This document shows positions 5,428-48,521 of a stretch of 64,000 bases of DNA, piece after piece. How positions within the stretch are numbered: position 1 is the first letter of the stretch; each line of letters starts with the position of its first letter. The stretch covers positions 32,001 to 96,000 of the IMG/VR virus record IMGVR_UViG_3300023238_000005. The stretch is one strand, 5' to 3'. Source of the stretch: a virus. The translations under genes and the position numbers were made by a program. The notes under the pieces are model-generated. The model worked only from the letters and a program-made list of their open reading frames with translations, was not told the origin of the DNA and did not search any database.

Positions 5428-5853
5428 TTACTCGGAGGATTCGTATCGTACAAACTCTCCGTCTTGGATCTTAAATACGTCTACTTCACCGCTACTACGA
5501 ATGTATGCGCGGCCACCGTCAATCATCTTGTCTTCGATTACTTTGTAATCGTGTCGATGTTGACTGTAATAGTATTTACCTTTTGACTCAATCATTCCAA
5601 AGTCAAACGACTCTACTATGTCAGCATTACAAATCATTACTCGTGCATCGCCAGCATAAGGATTACTGTATATTCCAAAGTAGTAATTACCAAACTCAGG
5701 ATGAGGAGTTTCACGATAAAAGATGTCAGCGGCAAAGTCTCCGCCTTCCTGAGTTGCTGTTGTGCATATGTACTTTACAAGTACACCGTCTTTTTCTGTG
5801 TATAACTGTTCTGCTTTTTTTGTGTTAAACAGTGGCGAATGTTGTATATTCAT
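5428..5853 (-). CDS. hypothetical phage protein
   Basis: YS.HRHDY...MIDGGR.Y.R motif typical of a phage family. Confidence 0.65.
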   Translation of the reverse strand: MNIQHSPLFNTKKAEQLYTEKDGVLVKYICTTATQEGGDFAADIFYRETPHPEFGNYYFGIYSNPYAGDARVMICNADIVESFDFGMIESKGKYYYSQHRHDYKVIEDKMIDGGRAYIRSSGEVDVFKIQDGEFVRYESSE

Positions 5854-6451
5854 CTTGTTTTACCTTTTTAGCGATAGTCTTATGGATACCAGGATTAACT
5901 TTTAATACGCTTGACATCATATCATGTCTAATGTAATTACGAGTATAACATGTATCTGCGTTGCTGTCATCCTCAATATGTGGAACATTGTTTAGTCTTG
6001 CCCAAAGTTCTAAGTCGCGTTTGCGATTTAAACGAAACGGACGAAAGATCCTATCATTACGACTGTAGGGGATAATCTTTCCTGTACCATGCATACTGCT
6101 CCACACCCAGGTTTCTACACAATCATCTAAATGATGTCCTGTAATGACGTCTCGTTCAGTACATCGTTCTAACCAATCGTAACGAACATTACGCCAGTAT
6201 TCTTCTTGACTTTCACTAGCGTCTTTTACTCTAGTGTTAGTTGGAATATTAGTTAGCCAAGGAATGTCTTTTTCCTTACAATACTTTTCAACAAACTGCA
6301 TTGCCTTGTGTCCGTGTTCAGTACCGTGATTAAAGTGTAGTACAAATACATCGTGCTTACGACTTAAGAAGTCAACTACTGCCATACTGTCAACACCTCC
6401 ACTACAGGCAACATAAACTTTACGAGGCAATTTACCTTGTAGTTTAATCAT
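5825..6451 (-). CDS. tilS: tRNA(Ile)-lysidine synthetase-like PP-loop ATPase
   Basis: ACSGGVDSM, HFNHG, R..RY, TGHHLDD..ET, RP, ED.SN....Y.RN.IRH. Confidence 0.88.
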   Translation of the reverse strand: MIKLQGKLPRKVYVACSGGVDSMAVVDFLSRKHDVFVLHFNHGTEHGHKAMQFVEKYCKEKDIPWLTNIPTNTRVKDASESQEEYWRNVRYDWLERCTERDVITGHHLDDCVETWVWSSMHGTGKIIPYSRNDRIFRPFRLNRKRDLELWARLNNVPHIEDDSNADTCYTRNYIRHDMMSSVLKVNPGIHKTIAKKVKQDEYTTFATV

Positions 6452-30996: not shown

Positions 30997-33006
30997 CTAT
31001 TTTTTAGATAGTTTGTTAAAAAGTGTACTTTCGCTTTGCTCTGCATTTTGTTGATAACCTTCGCTATTGCTATTATAGTTATCAGGTTGTACTAGTGTTT
31101 CCCACGGAAGTGAATCTATTTCACCTTTTGAAAATGCATCCTTCCACGCTTCTCTTTCTTCCTTTGGATTACTTGCTTCCCAGTCTGCACGAGCAGTTAC
31201 CCATTCGTCATCTTGTTCTCTATCTTCATAGTATCTACTGTTTGGGTTTGATTCTTCCGGTAACTCTGAAGCTAGTTTTTTTTTGGTCTCTTCAAGTTCT
31301 TCTGGATAAAACATTCTGTTTGCAGTATCAGGGATGTCCTTAGGAGGTAGCATGTCAGCATTTAAATTTATTACGGGTGTCGCTAAGACTTGTTTCTCTA
31401 GCGTTGCAATGTCTCCGAAATCATCAGCAAACACTTCTGGATTGGCCTCAGCTTCTGCGTTTGCTTTTTCGACCCACTCGTTCCAGTTCTCTAAGTTATC
31501 TATTCCGTAGTCTTGTTCTGTTGATTCCACTCTTCCGGCATCGTCTCTTCCGATAGTGTAGGCTCTAGCGGCATCGTTCCCATTAGGCTCTTCAACTTCT
31601 CCTCGATCAAACCAGGCTGCTTCGCCTTTATTATCTTCTCCGGTTCCTTCGGTAGTATCACCGGTGCCGGGGAGTTGCCCATCATCAATTGTATCAGACT
31701 GTTCATTTACTTGTTCTTTCTCTTCTTCCGCAGGCGGCGTAGGAGTAGCAATATCAGGAGGAACGTTGTCAACTATTGCTTGTGCTCTTGCTCTTTCGAA
31801 TTCAGCTTGTTCGAGCCGAAGACGCTCACCGGTTTCATCTTCGAGTTCTTTTCTGCGGAACTCAAAGGTATATTGTGCGGCTAATAATAGTAGTACTGCT
31901 AGTGGATCAAACACAAAGATGATAACAATAATGACCCACTTCACTGCTTCTTCAAGCATATTTTTATCGGCTGCTTCGCCATACACAAATTCAGCAATAT
32001 ATTTAATTGGACCTACTTCAGCTTCAAGCTTACGATACTCTGCTTCTAGCTGTATCTTTTCTTCAGTCAGTCCATCTATAACTGTTGCTGCCGTTGCAAT
32101 ACGTGCTTGCTGTGCGTCAATGTCGCCCTGTACGGTGTCTGCTGTTGTAGTGTTACCTAGTTGTGTGCGTAAGCGGTTTATTAGTGTGTTACTGTTAGCA
32201 ATCTGCTGTTCTACTCCACTGCGTAAACGTGTGATCTCTGCGCGAGCTGCTATTACTGTTGGAGACTGTGCTGCATCTTGTAGCTTTTGTATCCATTCGC
32301 CTCGCTCTACTTTCTTAGCATCTTGAAAGTCAGTAAACGCTTGTGCTGTCTTTGGTCCGTATGCGCCATCTGCTTTAGCACCAATCATACCTTGTGCTTT
32401 AGGAATATCTCCTGCATCAATATACGATTGTAGCTTGTCCAACTCTGCGTCGATCTTATCTAATTCACTTTGGAACAATGCTGTAACGTTTGCAATAATT
32501 ACATTCTGTTCTGCAATGGCAGGTTGGATACGTGTGTATGCACTATCAATACGTGTTTGTTCTGTGTCAATTTGTTGCTGTATGCCTGCATCAACTCCAC
32601 TGTCAGTATCTTCCAACTGCTCAATACGATCTTCTGCTCGAGCAACAAGTACGTCTTGCCTGTCAAGTTCCTTTTGTATTGTTTCTACGCGAGCAATACT
32701 TTCTTCACTTGCACTTGTTTGTTCAATGTGTGCTTTACTTAGGAAGCCAAAGATGCCCATACTTGTAATAAACATAAGCACAACAACTGATATGCTTAGA
32801 TAAGTTTTAAGCCACCAAGCTGCTCTGTCCCAGTACTTGTGTAACCAAACTGCTGTAACTAGTTTAGCTATCTCAAGTGTGGTGCCCATAATTAAAATAG
32901 GTATTGCTGCCGCTGCAAAGATTGCAACCAATCCCGCGACAGAATAGTATATTGCTACTGCACTGATTGCTAATGCAGTAATTAATGTTAGTATTCCGAA
33001 TATCAT
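30997..33006 (-). CDS. membrane-anchored coiled-coil protein with peptidoglycan-binding motif
   Basis: N-terminal TM helices, coiled coil, G...DG.YGPKT..A...FQ motif, EVGPIKY...FVFDPLAV TM. Confidence 0.75.
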   Translation of the reverse strand: MIFGILTLITALAISAVAIYYSVAGLVAIFAAAAIPILIMGTTLEIAKLVTAVWLHKYWDRAAWWLKTYLSISVVVLMFITSMGIFGFLSKAHIEQTSASEESIARVETIQKELDRQDVLVARAEDRIEQLEDTDSGVDAGIQQQIDTEQTRIDSAYTRIQPAIAEQNVIIANVTALFQSELDKIDAELDKLQSYIDAGDIPKAQGMIGAKADGAYGPKTAQAFTDFQDAKKVERGEWIQKLQDAAQSPTVIAARAEITRLRSGVEQQIANSNTLINRLRTQLGNTTTADTVQGDIDAQQARIATAATVIDGLTEEKIQLEAEYRKLEAEVGPIKYIAEFVYGEAADKNMLEEAVKWVIIVIIFVFDPLAVLLLLAAQYTFEFRRKELEDETGERLRLEQAEFERARAQAIVDNVPPDIATPTPPAEEEKEQVNEQSDTIDDGQLPGTGDTTEGTGEDNKGEAAWFDRGEVEEPNGNDAARAYTIGRDDAGRVESTEQDYGIDNLENWNEWVEKANAEAEANPEVFADDFGDIATLEKQVLATPVINLNADMLPPKDIPDTANRMFYPEELEETKKKLASELPEESNPNSRYYEDREQDDEWVTARADWEASNPKEEREAWKDAFSKGEIDSLPWETLVQPDNYNSNSEGYQQNAEQSESTLFNKLSKK

Positions 33007-41425: not shown

Positions 41426-42553
41426 TTAATCATTTTTCATTACCTCTAATTTCCAACCTTTTGTTTTTCCCTTTTTTGGTATCGGCCAGTTTTTTTGTAT
41501 TTGCATTTTTAACGTACTTTGACTTAAATTATGCTCCTTGCAATAGTCGCCTAATTCACTGCCGTATAATATGTGCTCTTCATTATCCGGTGATGATAGT
41601 TTGTAACAGTAACTTTTCTTATTTAACTTGCCAACTCGCAAGCTAGCTTTTTGTCCAATTAACGCTTTAGTATGTGCAGACTGCGTCTTTCCATACATAG
41701 GGTTTCCAGAACCAGCATTAAGTTTTTTAAACAATTCCTTTGTTTCTTCACTGTGTTGCTTTGGGCCATAGCCGCCCCTTTCTTTTTGTAATCTTGATCT
41801 TAACTCACGCTGCGCTTGTGCCTTTTCATTACCGTATATTTCTTCATACGATTTACCTTTATGATTAGGTGGTCGAGCATCTTTGCATATATTTGTTAAG
41901 GTGCCGTTCTTATTATATCCTTTGCGGCCGTACTTTTCTATTAACACTTCTTCCATATCATATGCTAACTGTTCATCGATGATATTTTCTGCAATATATT
42001 CTATAACAGGTTCTAAACCTGCTTTACGAATACTAGCTATTTTATTTTCTTTATACTTATTTCTAGTATTAGGCGTAGGGCGCAAATGCGTTGACGCTCT
42101 GCCTCCTGTTCCTTTACCAATATAAAACGGTTCATTTGTTCTTGGATCAACTAGCTGATATACATAAAACATATTATTAATCTCCTGTGTATTGTATTTA
42201 GCAAGAGACAGAGAATACCAGTTAGGTACACTATAATCTGTATTTTGTATTGCACTCCTTGCAAAGATAATAAAATCTCTATTATCCTTATAAGGTGTTA
42301 CATCAACTAACATTTCGCCATTATTCCATACAGTATGTCGTATAGCTTGTAGCGTAACTCCTCCGTCAATTATATACCATCCTATAACTGGAGACCCGCC
42401 TTCTAACTGAGTATGTGTGTATACATTATTGTGACAGTTGTCATAATCGTACTCTGCTTCAGGCTCTACTAGTATTGCTCCTACCCAGCTACAGTCTAAG
42501 CTTTTACTAAAACTTAGAATGCTATCATCAATGTTAGTAGGAGTTGTCCACAT
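41426..42553 (-). mobile_element. GIY-YIG homing endonuclease (NUMOD-like repeats) with extra N-terminal domain
   Basis: FYVYQL.DP....PFYIGKG...R; HSEETK and GNPMYGK motifs; internal SD AGGAG and ATG at 42172. Confidence 0.85.
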
Positions 42554-43681
42554 TTAAAGACTAAATCCTTTAAATGTATCTTCACTTACATCTTGCTTCG
42601 TACCACCTGAAATATAGCTCGTTATTTGTGTTTGCTGAGGTGCCACTTGTACTTCGCTACCACTTATCCATTTCTGTGTCCAGGGTAAAGGATTAGTCTT
42701 TGTATTGTACGGACTTTTTAGATTTACATTAGTCATTCGACGTGTGCAAATCCATTCAATGTATCCACTCAACAACTCTGTGTTAAGTCCAATCATTGAT
42801 CCATCTTTAAACAAATATTCTGCCCAAGCCTTCTCCTGATCAACTGCGTCAACAAACATTTGAATACATGCTTCTTCTGTTTCTTCTGCAATCTTTACAT
42901 AGTCTGGATCGTCTTTCTTAAGAATCTTTAGCAACATTTGTGTGCTTGCTAGGTGCAAGTTCTCGTCACGGGCAATAAGTTTAATAATCTTAGCATTGCC
43001 TTCCATTTGCTTCATCTCTGCAAACGCCCAGCTACATGCAAAGCTTACATAGAACCGCACACCTTCAAGAATGTTAACACTCATTAGTGTAAGCCACAAC
43101 AATTTCTTTAGTTCATACATGTCAACTTTAATCTTCTTGCCATTAACAGTATGAGTACCTTCGCCTAGCAACTTGTACCAGCGTGTAGTTTCGATAAGGT
43201 CATCGTAGTACTTGCTAATGTCTCCAGCACAGTCTGCAATCTCTGCAATGTCTAGCATCTCATCAAAGATTTTACTGGGGTTGCTGTATACGTTACGAAT
43301 AATATGTGTGTATGAGCGTGAGTGGATTGTTTCTGAGAACGTCCACGTTGTGATCCAGTTCTCAATCTCTGGTAAACTTACAATAGGCGAAAATGCTTCT
43401 ACTGGTGCACGACCTTGCACACTATCTAGTAGAATTTGACGCTTTAGGTTACTTGTAAAGATGTGACGCTCATGGTCACTAAGAGCTTTAAAGTCTTTTG
43501 CATCTTGATAGATGTCTACTTCTTGAGGGACCCAAAAGAATCCCAGTTGCTTTTCTGTCAATCCATCAAAGCTTTTGTACTTCAGCGTATCATAACGCTG
43601 GATTGTAGGACCGCCCGTTGGGTCCAAGAATGCTAATACTTTTGTGTGGTCTGCTTTATTTTCAGTGTTAAAAACGCTCAT
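42554..43681 (-). CDS. nrdB: ribonucleotide reductase class Ia beta subunit
   Basis: FFW.PQE, LDSVQ, ETIHSRSY, LEG.RFY.SF, DE.LH. Confidence 0.97.
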   Translation of the reverse strand: MSVFNTENKADHTKVLAFLDPTGGPTIQRYDTLKYKSFDGLTEKQLGFFWVPQEVDIYQDAKDFKALSDHERHIFTSNLKRQILLDSVQGRAPVEAFSPIVSLPEIENWITTWTFSETIHSRSYTHIIRNVYSNPSKIFDEMLDIAEIADCAGDISKYYDDLIETTRWYKLLGEGTHTVNGKKIKVDMYELKKLLWLTLMSVNILEGVRFYVSFACSWAFAEMKQMEGNAKIIKLIARDENLHLASTQMLLKILKKDDPDYVKIAEETEEACIQMFVDAVDQEKAWAEYLFKDGSMIGLNTELLSGYIEWICTRRMTNVNLKSPYNTKTNPLPWTQKWISGSEVQVAPQQTQITSYISGGTKQDVSEDTFKGFSL

Positions 43682-43751: not shown

Positions 43752-44285
43752 TTAAATGTGACAAGATTCACAATTCTCTTCATCTACTTCAACAACTTCA
43801 AGTTCTCCCATCATCTTGTTAACATCTACTTCGCCTTGGCCATCGTTTGTTTGGAAATAATAAAGCTGTTTTCCGCCTAGCTTGTAGAACATTAAAAGAT
43901 GCTGCAACATTGTGCTCATTGGTATCTTTTCATCTTCAAAGTAAATTGGATTGTAACTAGTGTTAACACTAATTCCTTGATCAATGTACTTTTGTAGTAC
44001 AGCCATAATCTTCAAATAACCTTCTGGAGACTGTTGATCCCATAGCAAGTCATATTTATTCTTTAAACGCTTGTACTCAGGCACAACTTGCTTTAGTACA
44101 CCATGCTTGCTCTGCTTGATACTAATTAAACTACGTGGAGGCTCAATGCCATTTGTAGCATTTGCAATTTGCGCACTAGTGTTATGACTAATGCATCCAT
44201 TTGACAAGGTATAAGTTTCGTTGTCAGTTGAAACATCCCAAGTGTGTTCTGTTCCTGCGTCTCTTGTAATACGTTTAATTTTCAT
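43752..44285 (-). CDS. nrdA: split-intein C-fragment (44285-44181) plus C-terminal part of RNR alpha
   Basis: MKIKRI...TWDV......Y.L.NG.ISHN then TSAQIANATNGIEP, DQ.ISVN, KQLYY and C-terminal CESC. Confidence 0.92.
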   Translation of the reverse strand: MKIKRITRDAGTEHTWDVSTDNETYTLSNGCISHNTSAQIANATNGIEPPRSLISIKQSKHGVLKQVVPEYKRLKNKYDLLWDQQSPEGYLKIMAVLQKYIDQGISVNTSYNPIYFEDEKIPMSTMLQHLLMFYKLGGKQLYYFQTNDGQGEVDVNKMMGELEVVEVDEENCESCHI

Positions 44286-45268
44286 TTTAATAATTCCTCT
44301 TTTGTAATTGAACATTTTCCTTGTTTTGATACGTTATCTTCCCAGGGAATAAATTCTAAATTTTGCAAGCTCCCTAATAACGCAGGATCAATTCTTTCAA
44401 TAAATCCTCGAGATATTGAAAACTTATGATCTAGATGATAGGCGTGGTCGATTCCCGCTCGGCCCCTCTTTTCATAATTCGCTAATAGACTCAGGTCGTT
44501 TTGATTAGTATATTTCCAAACTTCTTTGTGATACTTTTTATAATCAGATAAGTCACAATACGGGACCCAGATGCCATTTTCTTCTAATGTTTTTCTAATC
44601 TTTGATTGTCGTTCTCTAAAAACGGTTTCTCCTAGATTATCTAGTGTGTTATGACCTCTAGTTTCTCTTATCTTAATATCAATTTCGTTTTTATTTAATG
44701 ACGTTGTCTTTTCTAAATACTGTCTATAAGAATCAATGCCTATTTTTTGATCGTGTATTTCTCTAATTTTTCTTTTTGCATAATCAAAAGATTTTCCTCT
44801 ATCTAAATAATACTGAATATGCAACGGACTATTAGCATATTGAAATTCTTTTGCTTTAATTTCTGACTCTTCTTCGCTGTGACCTTTTCTTATATAGAAC
44901 TCTTTACATCTAGGGCTTTGTGATTTTCCATTTTCTTTAGCAGTTTTCCATCCTTTTTGTAAGGATTTATTTCTCCATTCGTTGTATAGTTGAGTTCCTT
45001 TGTCTACACCGTGTTTTTTAATGAAATTTTCTTTTGATGTTGCTTTAGATTTTTTAAATTCGAGTATAGTTGTCTCAGCTTCTTCTCGAGTACAACTATC
45101 TCTCTTCATTACATAATCAGGGTCATATGGATTGGCCTTGTTTATTTTTTTGCCCCGGTTCCATGCATTCTTTTCCTTCACCAGAGAGATAGTTGTCTCA
45201 GCTTCTTCTCGAGTACAACTATCTCTCTTCATTACATAATCAGGGTCATATGGATTGGCTTTTTTCAT
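44282..45268 (-). mobile_element. free-standing HNH-type homing endonuclease between split-intein halves
   Basis: HLDH.FS...GF...NL..IPW..N..K; AT-rich; N-terminal repeated modules. Confidence 0.75.
45066..45259. repeat. 71-bp exact direct repeat (45066-45136 and 45189-45259)
   Basis: Encodes ANPYDPDYVMKRDSCTREEAETTI twice. Confidence 0.9.
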
Positions 45269-45300
45269 TATAACTTCCTTAGCGTTAATGCTCTAGTTAT

Positions 45301-46257
45301 TTATCCATTAACGCTAACAATATCGTCATCTTCAGTTAATTCACCTACTGTTATCCATACTTCTTTGTCATCTCGATTGACTAAAAGTTTATGATTTTCT
45401 GTAAATTTGTATGTCGATCCGTCTTCGAATTCAATTTCTGTAACAGACTGCGGACCGTTATAGTAGCATTCGTGTGCTATACTATTTTCTAGTTCAACAG
45501 GTTTTAAGAAAGGAAATCTCTGGCCTATCATGAATCTTTCGTGAACTGTGTCAATATCAATTTTTCCATAATCTTGAATAACTTCGGCAAGTGTTACAAC
45601 TGTTCCATCTTTTAGTCTCATTTCATTTTCTAAACTCTGGCATTCAGCTGGCATAAGGGCCATTAGTGTTGAGTTACGAATGCCTGTGTCCTTTAGCTGT
45701 GCTCTAAGTGTATCCCAATCCATACGCTCTACATGTGGAACCAACTCATCTAAGTCTTTCTTGTATGTTTGGTTAGGTGTAATACCGTGTCCGTACTTTG
45801 TTTCCATGTTGCCACTTGGCGCACCAAATTCTACTGCTAAGTCGGCACTTGCTTTAATTAAGTAGTACGACCATGCTTCTGCCCACTCGTCTACAAGTGC
45901 AAGCCCGTCTGCATCAATGTGCTGATACGTTAGATCATGTTTTGCTAACCAGTATGCGAAGTTAATAATGCCAACGCCTAAAGGACGGCGCTTCTCTGTA
46001 GATAATTGTGCTGCTAGAATTGGATAGTTTTGATAACTTAGCAGTGCATCCAATCCACGTACTGCCAAGCGACAAACACGCTCAAAGTCTGCCGGAGTAC
46101 GAATGTTACCCCAGTTGATTGCACTTAGTGTACAAAGCGAGATAGCAGCGCCGTCATAGTCTTCTACCATTTCATCTACATATACATAATCGTCATCATT
46201 AACATCGTCTAAGTTATCGTCTACAATTTCGTACAGCCATTTATTTTCCATTTTCAT
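45301..46257 (-). CDS. nrdA: middle part of RNR alpha plus split-intein N-fragment (45642-45301)
   Basis: AISLCTLSAINW, RRPLG.G, GIRNSTLMALMPAE then CQSLENEM...FTENHK (intein blocks A and B). Confidence 0.92.
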   Translation of the reverse strand: MKMENKWLYEIVDDNLDDVNDDDYVYVDEMVEDYDGAAISLCTLSAINWGNIRTPADFERVCRLAVRGLDALLSYQNYPILAAQLSTEKRRPLGVGIINFAYWLAKHDLTYQHIDADGLALVDEWAEAWSYYLIKASADLAVEFGAPSGNMETKYGHGITPNQTYKKDLDELVPHVERMDWDTLRAQLKDTGIRNSTLMALMPAECQSLENEMRLKDGTVVTLAEVIQDYGKIDIDTVHERFMIGQRFPFLKPVELENSIAHECYYNGPQSVTEIEFEDGSTYKFTENHKLLVNRDDKEVWITVGELTEDDDIVSVNG

Positions 46258-47008
46258 ATCCTTTTAATTTTCTTAATTTATACATAGACAATCCTGTTGC
46301 TAGCGATGCTTCAGACATTGATCCGTATTTAACGTCATCAACAACTATTGATTTAGCAAAAGCATTATCACTTCCGAACATTGCTTTTCCAGGTTTGCCT
46401 TTACTTTTCCAATCGTTATATTCGTACTCTACATTACGATTGTTTGTTAGTTTTTTACATTTATAATTTTTATAGTGCCTACGCTTACCTCTTGCAACTG
46501 CACTCATTGCAGAAGGTTTTAAATTATGTTCCTTACAAAAATCTAACATATTTTCTCTAACAACAACATCACCGTTAGGCAAAGTGATTTCCCACGTGTC
46601 AATTTTTAATTTATGTCTGTTATGATCGCCCCATAACTGCTTTCCTTTGTGAGGACTAGGTTTTCCTTTTTTTGCTTTAGATATCCTATCATAATATATT
46701 TTAGCTAGCTCTGGATTATCGTGATGGCTCCAACCTCTTCCTGAATAATTATGAAGATTATAAAAATTAAAATTATTTGCAGCGTCAATATTGCATAGTA
46801 TATCTTGTTCTTTAGACACTGCTTCTTCCCTAGTTAAATTATAGTGTAATATCGTTCTAGTAAAATTTTTAGGATTATTTTCATATATTTCGTTAAAGTA
46901 ATTGCTAGACGAAATATACCCATCGTCAAACGTTCCATAATGAGAACCTATATATTTTTTATTATCTGTTGCTGATTCCCACATATAAATAAATCCTGTT
47001 TTACTCAT
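46241..47008 (-). mobile_element. free-standing GIY-YIG (Seg-like) homing endonuclease
   Basis: GFIY.W......KKYIGSH......Y..S...E...FYN. Confidence 0.8.
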
Positions 47009-47040
47009 AATACTATACTCCTTTGTATAGTATTATTTAT
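47007..47040 (-). promoter_or_regulatory. late-type promoter GATAAATA plus 12-bp hairpin covering the endonuclease RBS
   Basis: ATAATACTATAC-tccttt-GTATAGTATTAT encloses AAGGAG and reaches the ATG. Confidence 0.75.
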
Positions 47041-47042
47041 CC

Positions 47043-48521
47043 TTATGTACTTTTTTTGCCATCAAATCTTTCTTTGTCAAGCCTTAAAATATTTCCTACT
47101 GATTTTTTATATTCTACGTATTCTTGATACTTTTCTTTAGGAATACGCACTCGTCTCCTGTGTGCCCCGTCGTTTAGATCTTTAAGTGGCTTAGTTGGCA
47201 ATGTAATTTCTGCGCACAAGTTACTCATTCTAATAGGTGCAATTTCTGGTATAAAGCTGCCATGATCGTTTGCATTGTCTACGTTTTGTAAATAAATGCG
47301 TCCTGTATTCTTACGCTCTTCCATAAAATTACTGAACAGTTCACTTGCTTTAACTGACTTCTTACGTAGTCGTGTGTTACGTTCTGCTGTTTCGTATAGT
47401 TCTTTAAACTTGTCTTGATCTGCAAAGAAAGCTTCGTACAATCCAGGAACGTCTGCAGGCGAGAACAAAGTTATGTCGCTACCAGTTACTAGTCTTTCAT
47501 ACATCAACTTGTTAAACTGTACACCGTAGTCCATGTGTCGTACACGGTTCTCTTCGGTCCCTTTGTTGTTCTTTAACACTAGCATGTCTTCTACTTCGAG
47601 GTGCCATACAGGGTAGTATATAGTTGCTGCTCCGCCACGTACACCGCCTTGGCTGCATGACTTTACTGCTGATTGGAAATGCTTATAGAAAGGAATGATT
47701 CCTGTGTGATATGCATCGCCTTTACGTATGGGGGAGCCGATAGCACGTATGCTTCCTCCGCCGATACCAATGCCTGCTTTTTGTGAGACGTACTTAACAA
47801 CAGAGGCAGCAGTAGCATTAATGCTGTCAAGACTGTCATCAGTTTCAATGAGTACGCACGAACTGAACTGGCGCTGCGGGGTACGCACACCAGCCATAAC
47901 AGGAGTAGGTAAACTAATGTCGTGTAAACTAATAGCATCGTAATATTCCTTGACCCATTGCAACCGAGTCTCTATTGGATAGTCTTGAAACAAACTTGCT
48001 GCAATAAGAATGTAGCAAACTTGTGGAGTTTCAAAGATTTCGCCGCTTACTCTATTTTGTACTAGGTATTTGCCGCGAAGCTGTTCCATTGCAACATAAG
48101 TTAAGTTCTCGTCGCGCTCGTGCTTAATAAATGTATTGATTCTATTCCACTCGTCAGTTGTATACTTTGTAACGAGTTCAGAATCATAAAATCCAGCTTC
48201 TGTATTTCTGTCAACTAGTTCTTTAATATGACAAGGTTCAAACCCATCGTAAACTTCTTTGCGTAGTGCATAGTTTACAAGGCGTCCGCCTACATATTGA
48301 TAGTTAGGAGTTTCTGCACTGATAAGATCTGCTGCTGCTTTGATTAGCGTTTCTTGGATTTCTTTACTAGTTACTCCATTGTAGAACTGTATTTGACTTT
48401 TAAGTTCTACTTCGCTAGGGCTAACTCCTGTAATATTTTCACAAGCATAAAATACAACCTTGTGTAGTTTTTCAATGTCTAGAAGTTCTTTGTCGCCGTC
48501 ACGTTTGGTAACTTGAATCAT
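47043..48521 (-). CDS. nrdA: N-terminal part of RNR class Ia alpha (ATP cone to NLCxE loop)
   Basis: VTKRDG ATP cone, PTP.MAG.R...QFSSC, SNLCAEI, then a basic non-RNR tail. Confidence 0.95.
   Translation of the reverse strand: MIQVTKRDGDKELLDIEKLHKVVFYACENITGVSPSEVELKSQIQFYNGVTSKEIQETLIKAAADLISAETPNYQYVGGRLVNYALRKEVYDGFEPCHIKELVDRNTEAGFYDSELVTKYTTDEWNRINTFIKHERDENLTYVAMEQLRGKYLVQNRVSGEIFETPQVCYILIAASLFQDYPIETRLQWVKEYYDAISLHDISLPTPVMAGVRTPQRQFSSCVLIETDDSLDSINATAASVVKYVSQKAGIGIGGGSIRAIGSPIRKGDAYHTGIIPFYKHFQSAVKSCSQGGVRGGAATIYYPVWHLEVEDMLVLKNNKGTEENRVRHMDYGVQFNKLMYERLVTGSDITLFSPADVPGLYEAFFADQDKFKELYETAERNTRLRKKSVKASELFSNFMEERKNTGRIYLQNVDNANDHGSFIPEIAPIRMSNLCAEITLPTKPLKDLNDGAHRRRVRIPKEKYQEYVEYKKSVGNILRLDKERFDGKKST

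Follow-up and report, generated by a model that had tools for sequence, protein, structure and literature searches.

A phage ribonucleotide reductase large subunit encoded in three pieces, with a probable split intein at one break and putative non-covalent assembly at the other

We analyzed a 64,000-nucleotide stretch of an uncultured giant phage genome (hereafter the window; positions 32,001 to 96,000 of the 116-kb IMG/VR virus record IMGVR_UViG_3300023238_000005, completeness about 32% according to CheckV). In this window nrdA, which encodes the large subunit of a class Ia ribonucleotide reductase (RNR), is broken twice, and each break holds a free-standing gene for a putative homing endonuclease. 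We propose that the active NrdA is formed from three polypeptides, A, B and C, where B and C would be joined by protein splicing via a split intein and A would be held non-covalently; we assign this reading a probability of about 0.72 from the sequence analyses described below. Both mechanisms have been described separately in the literature, and we found no published report of both in one enzyme. This agrees with the sequence-only reading that our analysis followed up, i.e., a model's inspection of the letters without database searches, to which the combination was likewise new.

The gene is contained in three open reading frames (ORFs) on the minus strand. Piece A (492 amino acids (aa); 47043–48521) comprises the ATP-cone, the all-α domain and the first half of the barrel. 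Piece B (318 aa; 45301–46257) starts with an acidic head, continues with a barrel segment containing ISLCTL and ends in the N-terminal intein half (IntN), where Pfam matched the N part of the intein splicing domain. Piece C (43752–44285, longest ORF to 44315) consists of the C-terminal intein half (IntC) and the C-extein (43752–44180), which runs from Thr+1 (TSAQIANATNG) via LYYF to the C-terminal CESCHI redox pair. The Pfam profile of the RNR barrel was covered by A at positions 1–221, by B at 214–394 and by C at 390–523. On PRK09103, the NCBIfam model of E. coli-type NrdA with 761 positions, B corresponds to 451–626 and C to 609–756. All catalytic motifs are present and are spread over the pieces, i.e., SSCVLIE (the C225 equivalent) and the SNLCAEI thiyl loop in A, ISLCTL in B, and LYYF together with the terminal CESCHI in C. 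The sequence-only reading had described both interruptions by free-standing endonuclease genes and the same division of motifs, and the ORFs, their coordinates and the Pfam coverage bear this out in full. Piece C most likely starts at MKIK (44285) and less likely at the upstream ATG of the longest ORF (44315); the MKIK start codon overlaps the stop codon of the second nuclease gene as ATGA, with AGAGGA 10 nt upstream. Piece B may start at its second ATG (46251).

We scanned IMG/VR with piece B, obtained 80 loci and mapped all window proteins onto them. About 70 of these loci contain an uninterrupted nrdA, with a B core up to 96% identical to that of the window. The intact relatives read continuously through LPTKPLKDLNDPEGEISLCTL across break 1 and through MPAE-TSAQ across break 2; proteins split only at break 1 are also continuous from MPAE to TSAQ. 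As some 70 relatives are uninterrupted at these positions, both junctions are fixed to the residue. The last 41 aa of A, the first 38 aa of B, the 113 aa following MPAE and the 35 aa preceding TSAQ are therefore extra, and because these peptides are absent from the intact relatives, we conclude that both elements were inserted into an otherwise ordinary nrdA. In a megablast search of GenBank phages, the window locus had no match.

Break 2, MPAE|TSAQ, corresponds to the E623/T624 region of the E. coli enzyme (PRK09103). IntN (113 aa; minus strand, 45304–45642) begins with Cys1 (CQSL) directly after MPAE and has TENH as block B, and IntC (35 aa, MKIK...SHN; minus strand, 44181–44285) ends with SHN directly before Thr+1. 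The residues needed for splicing are all present, i.e., Cys1, TxxH, the penultimate His, the terminal Asn and Thr+1. IntN matched Pfam Intein_splicing with E 1e-5 and gave weak matches in the PDB, on DnaE and RadA inteins at block B. IntC scored 16.7 bits against TIGR01443 (intein_Cterm; cut-off 15.6) and E 0.0016 against another IntC allele in hhalign. The ratio of nonsynonymous to synonymous substitution rates (dN/dS) was 0.11–0.17 for IntN and 0.04–0.08 for IntC, from which we conclude that both intein halves are under purifying selection. Moreover, comparison with a relative (L006) gave about 75% nucleotide identity along nrdA and 97–100% over 44165–44404, i.e., over the 3′ end of nuclease gene 2 and IntC, with identity dropping back exactly at the extein boundary. 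This block of near-identity against a background of about 75% is therefore read as a recent homing or gene-conversion tract. Break 2 is hence probably occupied by a split intein, for which anatomy and selection suggest trans-splicing. The same intein, with halves of about 113 and 35 aa at MPAE/TSAQ, had been predicted from the bare sequence, and Cys1, TENH, SHN|T and the Pfam and TIGRFAM matches are in line with it.

Fractured genes, in which a split intein is combined with a free-standing homing-endonuclease gene, were described by Dassa et al. (2009, PMC2677866) and include NrdA-1 to NrdA-7. The window resembles them in several respects: IntN ends the upstream gene, IntC begins the downstream gene and the free-standing nuclease gene stands between them, a hairpin with a late-promoter motif lies 5′ of the nuclease gene, and the host gene encodes a phage class I RNR large subunit. 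In contrast to the published NrdA split inteins, which are located directly N-terminal to the thiyl Cys (PMC2677866), the window intein interrupts MPAE|TSAQ, about 185 residues beyond that position, and is followed by Thr+1. In one relative of the window (L004, see below) and in 21 metagenomic middle pieces, a different split intein is found at the published thiyl-Cys site. The nucleases differ as well, since only GIY-YIG and Vsr-like types were found in 2009, with HNH types predicted as possible (PMC2677866), whereas nuclease 2 of the window is HNH-like.

Nuclease gene 2 (328 aa; minus strand, 44282–45268; PHROG 5104) is free-standing and encodes a C-terminal domain with HLDH ... NLEFIPWEDN. 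The HLDH...N...N pattern is invariant in nine relatives, and AlphaFold2 (AF2) modeled the domain with a predicted local distance difference test score (pLDDT) of 83. Its best fold matches were HNH nucleases, at weak scores (Foldseek E 0.8; VIA Z 4.3 to GVE2 HNH); Pfam gave no match and a sequence search of the PDB nothing meaningful. The HNH-like type, already named by the sequence-only reading, is therefore a putative assignment. Full-length relatives of nuclease 2 are always located at the same nrdA site.

One such cassette is found in a cultured phage. Klebsiella phage phiKp_21 (Alcyoneusvirus; LC768485.1, 52508–56220, our locus L117) has a break-2 cassette of split intein, HNH-like gene and IntC piece, annotated as nrdA and two hypothetical proteins, and we found no published description of it. 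The insertion site is that of the window (MPGE|CQSW ... SHN|TSSQ in phiKp_21). The two loci share about 33% identity in IntN and have IntC halves of equal length, and the HNH-like nuclease shares 28% identity over 280 aa (E 5e-19). Unlike the window, phiKp_21 lacks break 1, and its loop is continuous to ISLCTL.

A distant nrdA (L113:272–4814; 44% identity) has a gene for a Vsr-like (EDxHD-type) nuclease at break 2, with an N-terminal region that resembles that of window nuclease 2. Its intein is apparently split elsewhere, so that the N part is short and block B falls into a long C part. In addition, an unrelated-looking in-frame insert of 81 aa is found at its break-1 loop; the likeness of this insert to the basic tail described below was not significant.

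Break 1 of the window lies between SNLCAEI...LND at the end of the A core and ISLCTL in B. Here A is extended by a basic C-terminal tail (41 aa, isoelectric point (pI) 10.2; minus strand, 47046–47168) with 13 K/R against 6 D/E, and B starts with the acidic head (38 aa, pI 4.05; minus strand, 46144–46257) with 14 D/E against 2 K/R and conserved WLYEIV and YVYVDE motifs. This polarity is conserved, the net charge ranging from +7 to +11 in 12 tails and from -4 to -15 in 44 heads. Among the window and its relatives L004, L006, L009 and L089–L092, dN/dS of tail and head was 0.1–0.4; in the more divergent pairs, dS approached or reached saturation. Insertions and deletions came in whole codons. We conclude from this pattern that tail and head evolve as proteins and are under purifying selection. 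The junctions, as fixed by the intact relatives, contain neither Cys/Ser/Thr+1 nor His-Asn. A break between the thiyl-radical loop and the SLCTL redox Cys without intein motifs, with a basic end on A and an acidic start on B, is what the sequence-only reading had noticed, and the pI values and the absence of both peptides from intact relatives now add to it.

This arrangement is reminiscent of the 'genes in pieces' RNR of Aeromonas phage Aeh1, nrdA-a / mobE / nrdA-b (Friedrich et al. 2007, as cited in PMC3045599). In Aeh1, two polypeptides are translated separately, each with its own tail, basic in NrdA-a (pI 10.4) and acidic in NrdA-b (pI 3.8); the a/b heterodimer can form without these tails, whereas activity and the dimerisation of heterodimers require them (Crona et al. 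2011, PMC3045599). In the window the cut falls into that loop too, with the thiyl-radical Cys/Glu (C439/E441 equivalents) on one side and the Cys of ISLCTL, equivalent to C462, on the other. In both phages the free-standing nuclease gene and the start of the downstream piece overlap, a basic tail stands upstream and an acidic head downstream, intact homologues have neither, and a hairpin over the ribosome-binding site of the nuclease gene is accompanied by a late-promoter-like motif. Unlike in Aeh1, a T4-like Aeromonas phage, tail and head are longer in the giant phage of the window, and the downstream piece is cut again by an intein. We tried the Aeh1 peptides on hidden Markov models (HMMs) of the window family and rejected sequence homology of the tails, because the Aeh1 head (0.1 bits) and tail (0.5 bits) were equalled by 351 and 418 of 1000 shuffles, respectively. 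As the tails are not significantly similar, we see in break 1 a solution of the Aeh1 kind at the Aeh1 site, and no proof of common descent of the tails. The sequence-only reading had called this a charge-zipper assembly of a composite active site; its non-covalent part is supported, while the zipper is too specific a wording in view of the roles of the Aeh1 tails (PMC3045599).

The two systems are further linked by their nucleases. Nuclease gene 1 (255 aa; minus strand, 46241–47008) is free-standing and combines a GIY-(10)-YIG N-terminus with a MobE-like C-terminal half; residues 109–247 are 34% identical to residues 99–229 of Aeh1 MobE (E 1e-16). The N-terminal domain is of GIY-YIG type, whereas MobE is an HNH enzyme. 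The motif, FIY-(10)-YIG, fits the earlier, putative assignment as a GIY-YIG nuclease. The Pfam GIY-YIG match was weak (E 0.05, below the cut-off); PHROG 314, 'homing endonuclease', matched with 5e-19. Relatives in IMG/VR are always located at the same nrdA site. Nuclease 1 hence looks like a DNA-binding module shared with MobE and joined to a swapped nuclease domain, although the putative families of both window nucleases were assigned from motifs and from weak profile or fold matches.

Both nuclease genes are preceded by predicted RNA structure. A GGATAAATA motif followed by a 12-bp hairpin (minus strand, 47009–47042; -12.6 kcal/mol, z -5.2) covers the ribosome-binding site and start codon of nuclease gene 1. 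A further 12-bp hairpin (minus strand, 45275–45317; -14.2 kcal/mol, z -4.5) spans the end of piece B, carries GGATAAATA in its loop and abuts the ribosome-binding site of nuclease gene 2 with its 3′ arm. The start regions of pieces B and C are unstructured, and piece B has its own ribosome-binding site and start. The regulation reported for mobE and for fractured genes is of the same kind (PMC2677866).

The window genome is not the only one with both breaks, as the combination is found in many metagenomic relatives as well. In the 120 top-ranking database relatives of piece B, at least 19 protein clusters, down to about 55% identity, resemble the window in having the acidic head and IntN on one chain. 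About two dozen clusters have the head without an intein, as in Aeh1. A further 21 clusters carry a thiyl-site IntC together with IntN on one piece, in which case nrdA must be cut by two split inteins. Relatives with as little as about 50% identity still have the architecture of the window. One relative (L008) has break 2 only and four (L089–L092) have break 1 only. The nrdA of a further relative, on a 251-kb contig (L004:3509–7661; L005 is identical), is interrupted four times. A cis mini-intein (about 147 aa) is inserted at AVKSC|C...HN|SQGG, and the thiyl Cys is the site of a split intein that has no nuclease gene and lies 17 residues upstream of break 1. The tail/head split likewise lacks a nuclease gene, and at break 2 the nuclease gene is reduced to its last 50 codons. 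One ORF of this locus (5718–6017) consists of IntC, 17 extein residues and the basic tail, and nothing else. As the combinations vary among relatives, we conclude that the elements assort independently, as mobile cassettes would.

In two further relatives (L096 and L097, about 690–2092), which have break 2 and lack break 1, a stretch of about 1.4 kb separates the thiyl-Cys position from the remaining nrdA. It probably represents a split intein that has a nuclease gene of its own.

Tail and head also occur apart from a nuclease gene or from the split itself. The locus with four interruptions keeps split, tail and head without the nuclease gene, with an 11-nt overlap between its tail ORF and piece B. 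In two metagenomic proteins, P0126 and P0027, tail and head are fused in frame and form a loop insert of about 80 aa. They are connected by a six-residue linker in P0126; P0027, one of the pieces with a thiyl-site IntC and IntN, scored 22 bits against the tail HMM, which none of 1000 shuffles reached. In an AF2 model of P0126 the tail forms a strand and a long helix and the head a β-hairpin, with a pLDDT of 55–73 in the peptides. A tblastn search with the head alone found nothing. Tentatively, and at somewhat less than even odds, we suggest that tail and head each contribute one half to a small, portable 'clasp' domain that moves together with the nuclease gene and can function in split or in fused form.

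Other explanations can be considered for break 1. Phage RNR genes often carry group I introns (PMC3653736), and the insert in L004, which lacks the nuclease gene, has with about 260 nt the size of an intron. Break 1 might accordingly be a group I intron with the GIY-YIG gene in its loop, tail and head being intron read-through and A and B being joined in the mRNA. However, Rfam scans gave neither Intron_gpI nor a group II intron nor any other relevant match, be it in the window (E<=10) or in L004, L006, L008 and L009 (E<=1). Of these, L004 is the most telling negative, because its nuclease ORF is gone and a compact intron should be easily detected. Moreover, the conservation of tail and head is phased by codons, at the dN/dS given above, piece B is equipped for its own translation start, fused in-frame forms exist, and the pieces of Aeh1 are translated separately, each with its tail (PMC3045599). 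We therefore consider an intron very improbable. Alternatively, tail and head could be the shrunken remains of a split intein that no longer splices and now serves as a docking pair, an origin that Crona et al. considered for Aeh1 (PMC3045599); A would still be held non-covalently, and only the origin of the peptides would differ. The head is as long as IntC, its LYEIV and YVYVD resemble two IntC strands by eye, and the thiyl-site split intein of L004 lies only 17 residues upstream. Yet hhalign comparison of 44 heads with two IntC profiles gave E 0.7–0.8, in contrast to the value for the two IntC alleles that served as control, and the tails gave E 0.43 with the IntN profile. In the fused forms Pfam found no intein match over the insert, and tail and head together, at about 77 aa, are well below the size of a HINT fold. 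A dead-intein origin is hence not supported and seems unlikely to us, where it must be kept in mind that the peptides are very short for profile comparison. Taken together, these analyses support a break 1 that is mended by neither RNA nor protein splicing.

At break 2, the intein might have lost its activity, so that its halves would only hold B and C together and the enzyme would consist of three non-covalent chains. The weak profile matches to intein families would be compatible with such decay; on the other hand, all nucleophiles and assisting residues are in place and the splicing residues are conserved down to the 33%-identical allele of phiKp_21. Furthermore, the intein interrupts MPxE|TS, a conserved segment that would hardly be expected to accommodate some 150 additional residues, and we judge a non-splicing intein to be quite unlikely. 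The three pieces could also be a decaying pseudogene, with the phage relying on the RNR of its host or on another nrdA in the part of the genome outside the record, which is only about 32% complete. Against this, the extein cores of B and C had a dN/dS of 0.03–0.09, none of the catalytic motifs is damaged, and the same architecture persists in relatives down to the identity level given above. An intact nrdA elsewhere, which the sequence-only reading had named as an observation that would speak against it, was looked for: no other RNR barrel match was found in the 116-kb record and no second nrdA in the 251-kb relative, which is 71% complete. Decay of the pieces thus appears highly improbable.

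We hence favor a NrdA assembled from three polypeptides by two mechanisms, as the sequence-only reading had proposed; the intein anatomy, the negative results for splicing at break 1 and the selection on the peptides all argue for it. Some observations nevertheless weigh against this assembly. IntN stays below the profile thresholds, with 25.9 bits for Intein_splicing (gathering score 35.8) and 15 bits for TIGR01445 (cut-off 24.5), where a half-intein fits a full profile poorly. For the fused P0126, AF2 gave a model of low overall quality (pLDDT 58) that yields no contacts between tail and head. Tail and head lack significant sequence similarity to the Aeh1 tails, and applying the Aeh1 biochemistry to the window is an argument by analogy, from the site, the charge and the shared nuclease module. 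Finally, given the incompleteness of the record, an intact second nrdA could lie outside the sequenced part.

From the observed anatomy and its conservation we infer the following course of events. The three NrdA polypeptides would be translated from one operon. The intein halves on B and C would associate, excise themselves and join MPAE to TSAQ by a peptide bond, giving a B-C product of about 347 aa that is equivalent to Aeh1 NrdA-b. Piece A would remain separate and assemble non-covalently with this product. The basic tail of A and the acidic head of B would assist, and assembly would rebuild an active site with cysteines on different chains. Both cuts would have been made by mobile cassettes, each with a homing-endonuclease gene. 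The hairpins over the ribosome-binding sites may silence translation of both nuclease genes on the operon mRNA, and a late-promoter-like ATAAATA, which lies 5′ of the first hairpin and within the second hairpin's loop, may release the nuclease genes late in infection.

RNR is essential for phage DNA synthesis. Because the active site needs residues from all three pieces, the locus is a stringent natural test of how an essential gene can be cut by selfish DNA while the carrier survives. Two known solutions, trans-splicing and assembly tails brought along by the insertion, would stand side by side on one enzyme, and the intermediate states in relatives make their evolutionary order, cost and interchangeability testable. 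If the proposed clasp exists, it would render tolerable an otherwise lethal cut in the active-site loop. The clade would then offer, within one enzyme, a natural series that runs from the intact gene through forms with the clasp alone, a split intein alone or both, to forms with two split inteins and with as many as four interruptions, and covalent and non-covalent repair of fractured genes could be compared directly. In practical terms, the locus would supply a new split intein with a Thr+1 nucleophile at an RNR site other than the published one and a new conserved pair of basic and acidic peptides that might be used as a heterodimerisation tag. As the split-intein cassette has gone unrecognised in cultured giant Klebsiella phages, the biochemistry is feasible on an available phage.

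Directly downstream of piece C and in the same orientation, the window contains nrdB for the small subunit (minus strand, 42554–43681; Pfam). Directly after the nrdB stop codon follows a third endonuclease-like gene (41426–42553) with a GIY-YIG/LEM-3-like domain and NUMOD3, which has an unrelated N-terminal extension of about 127 aa.

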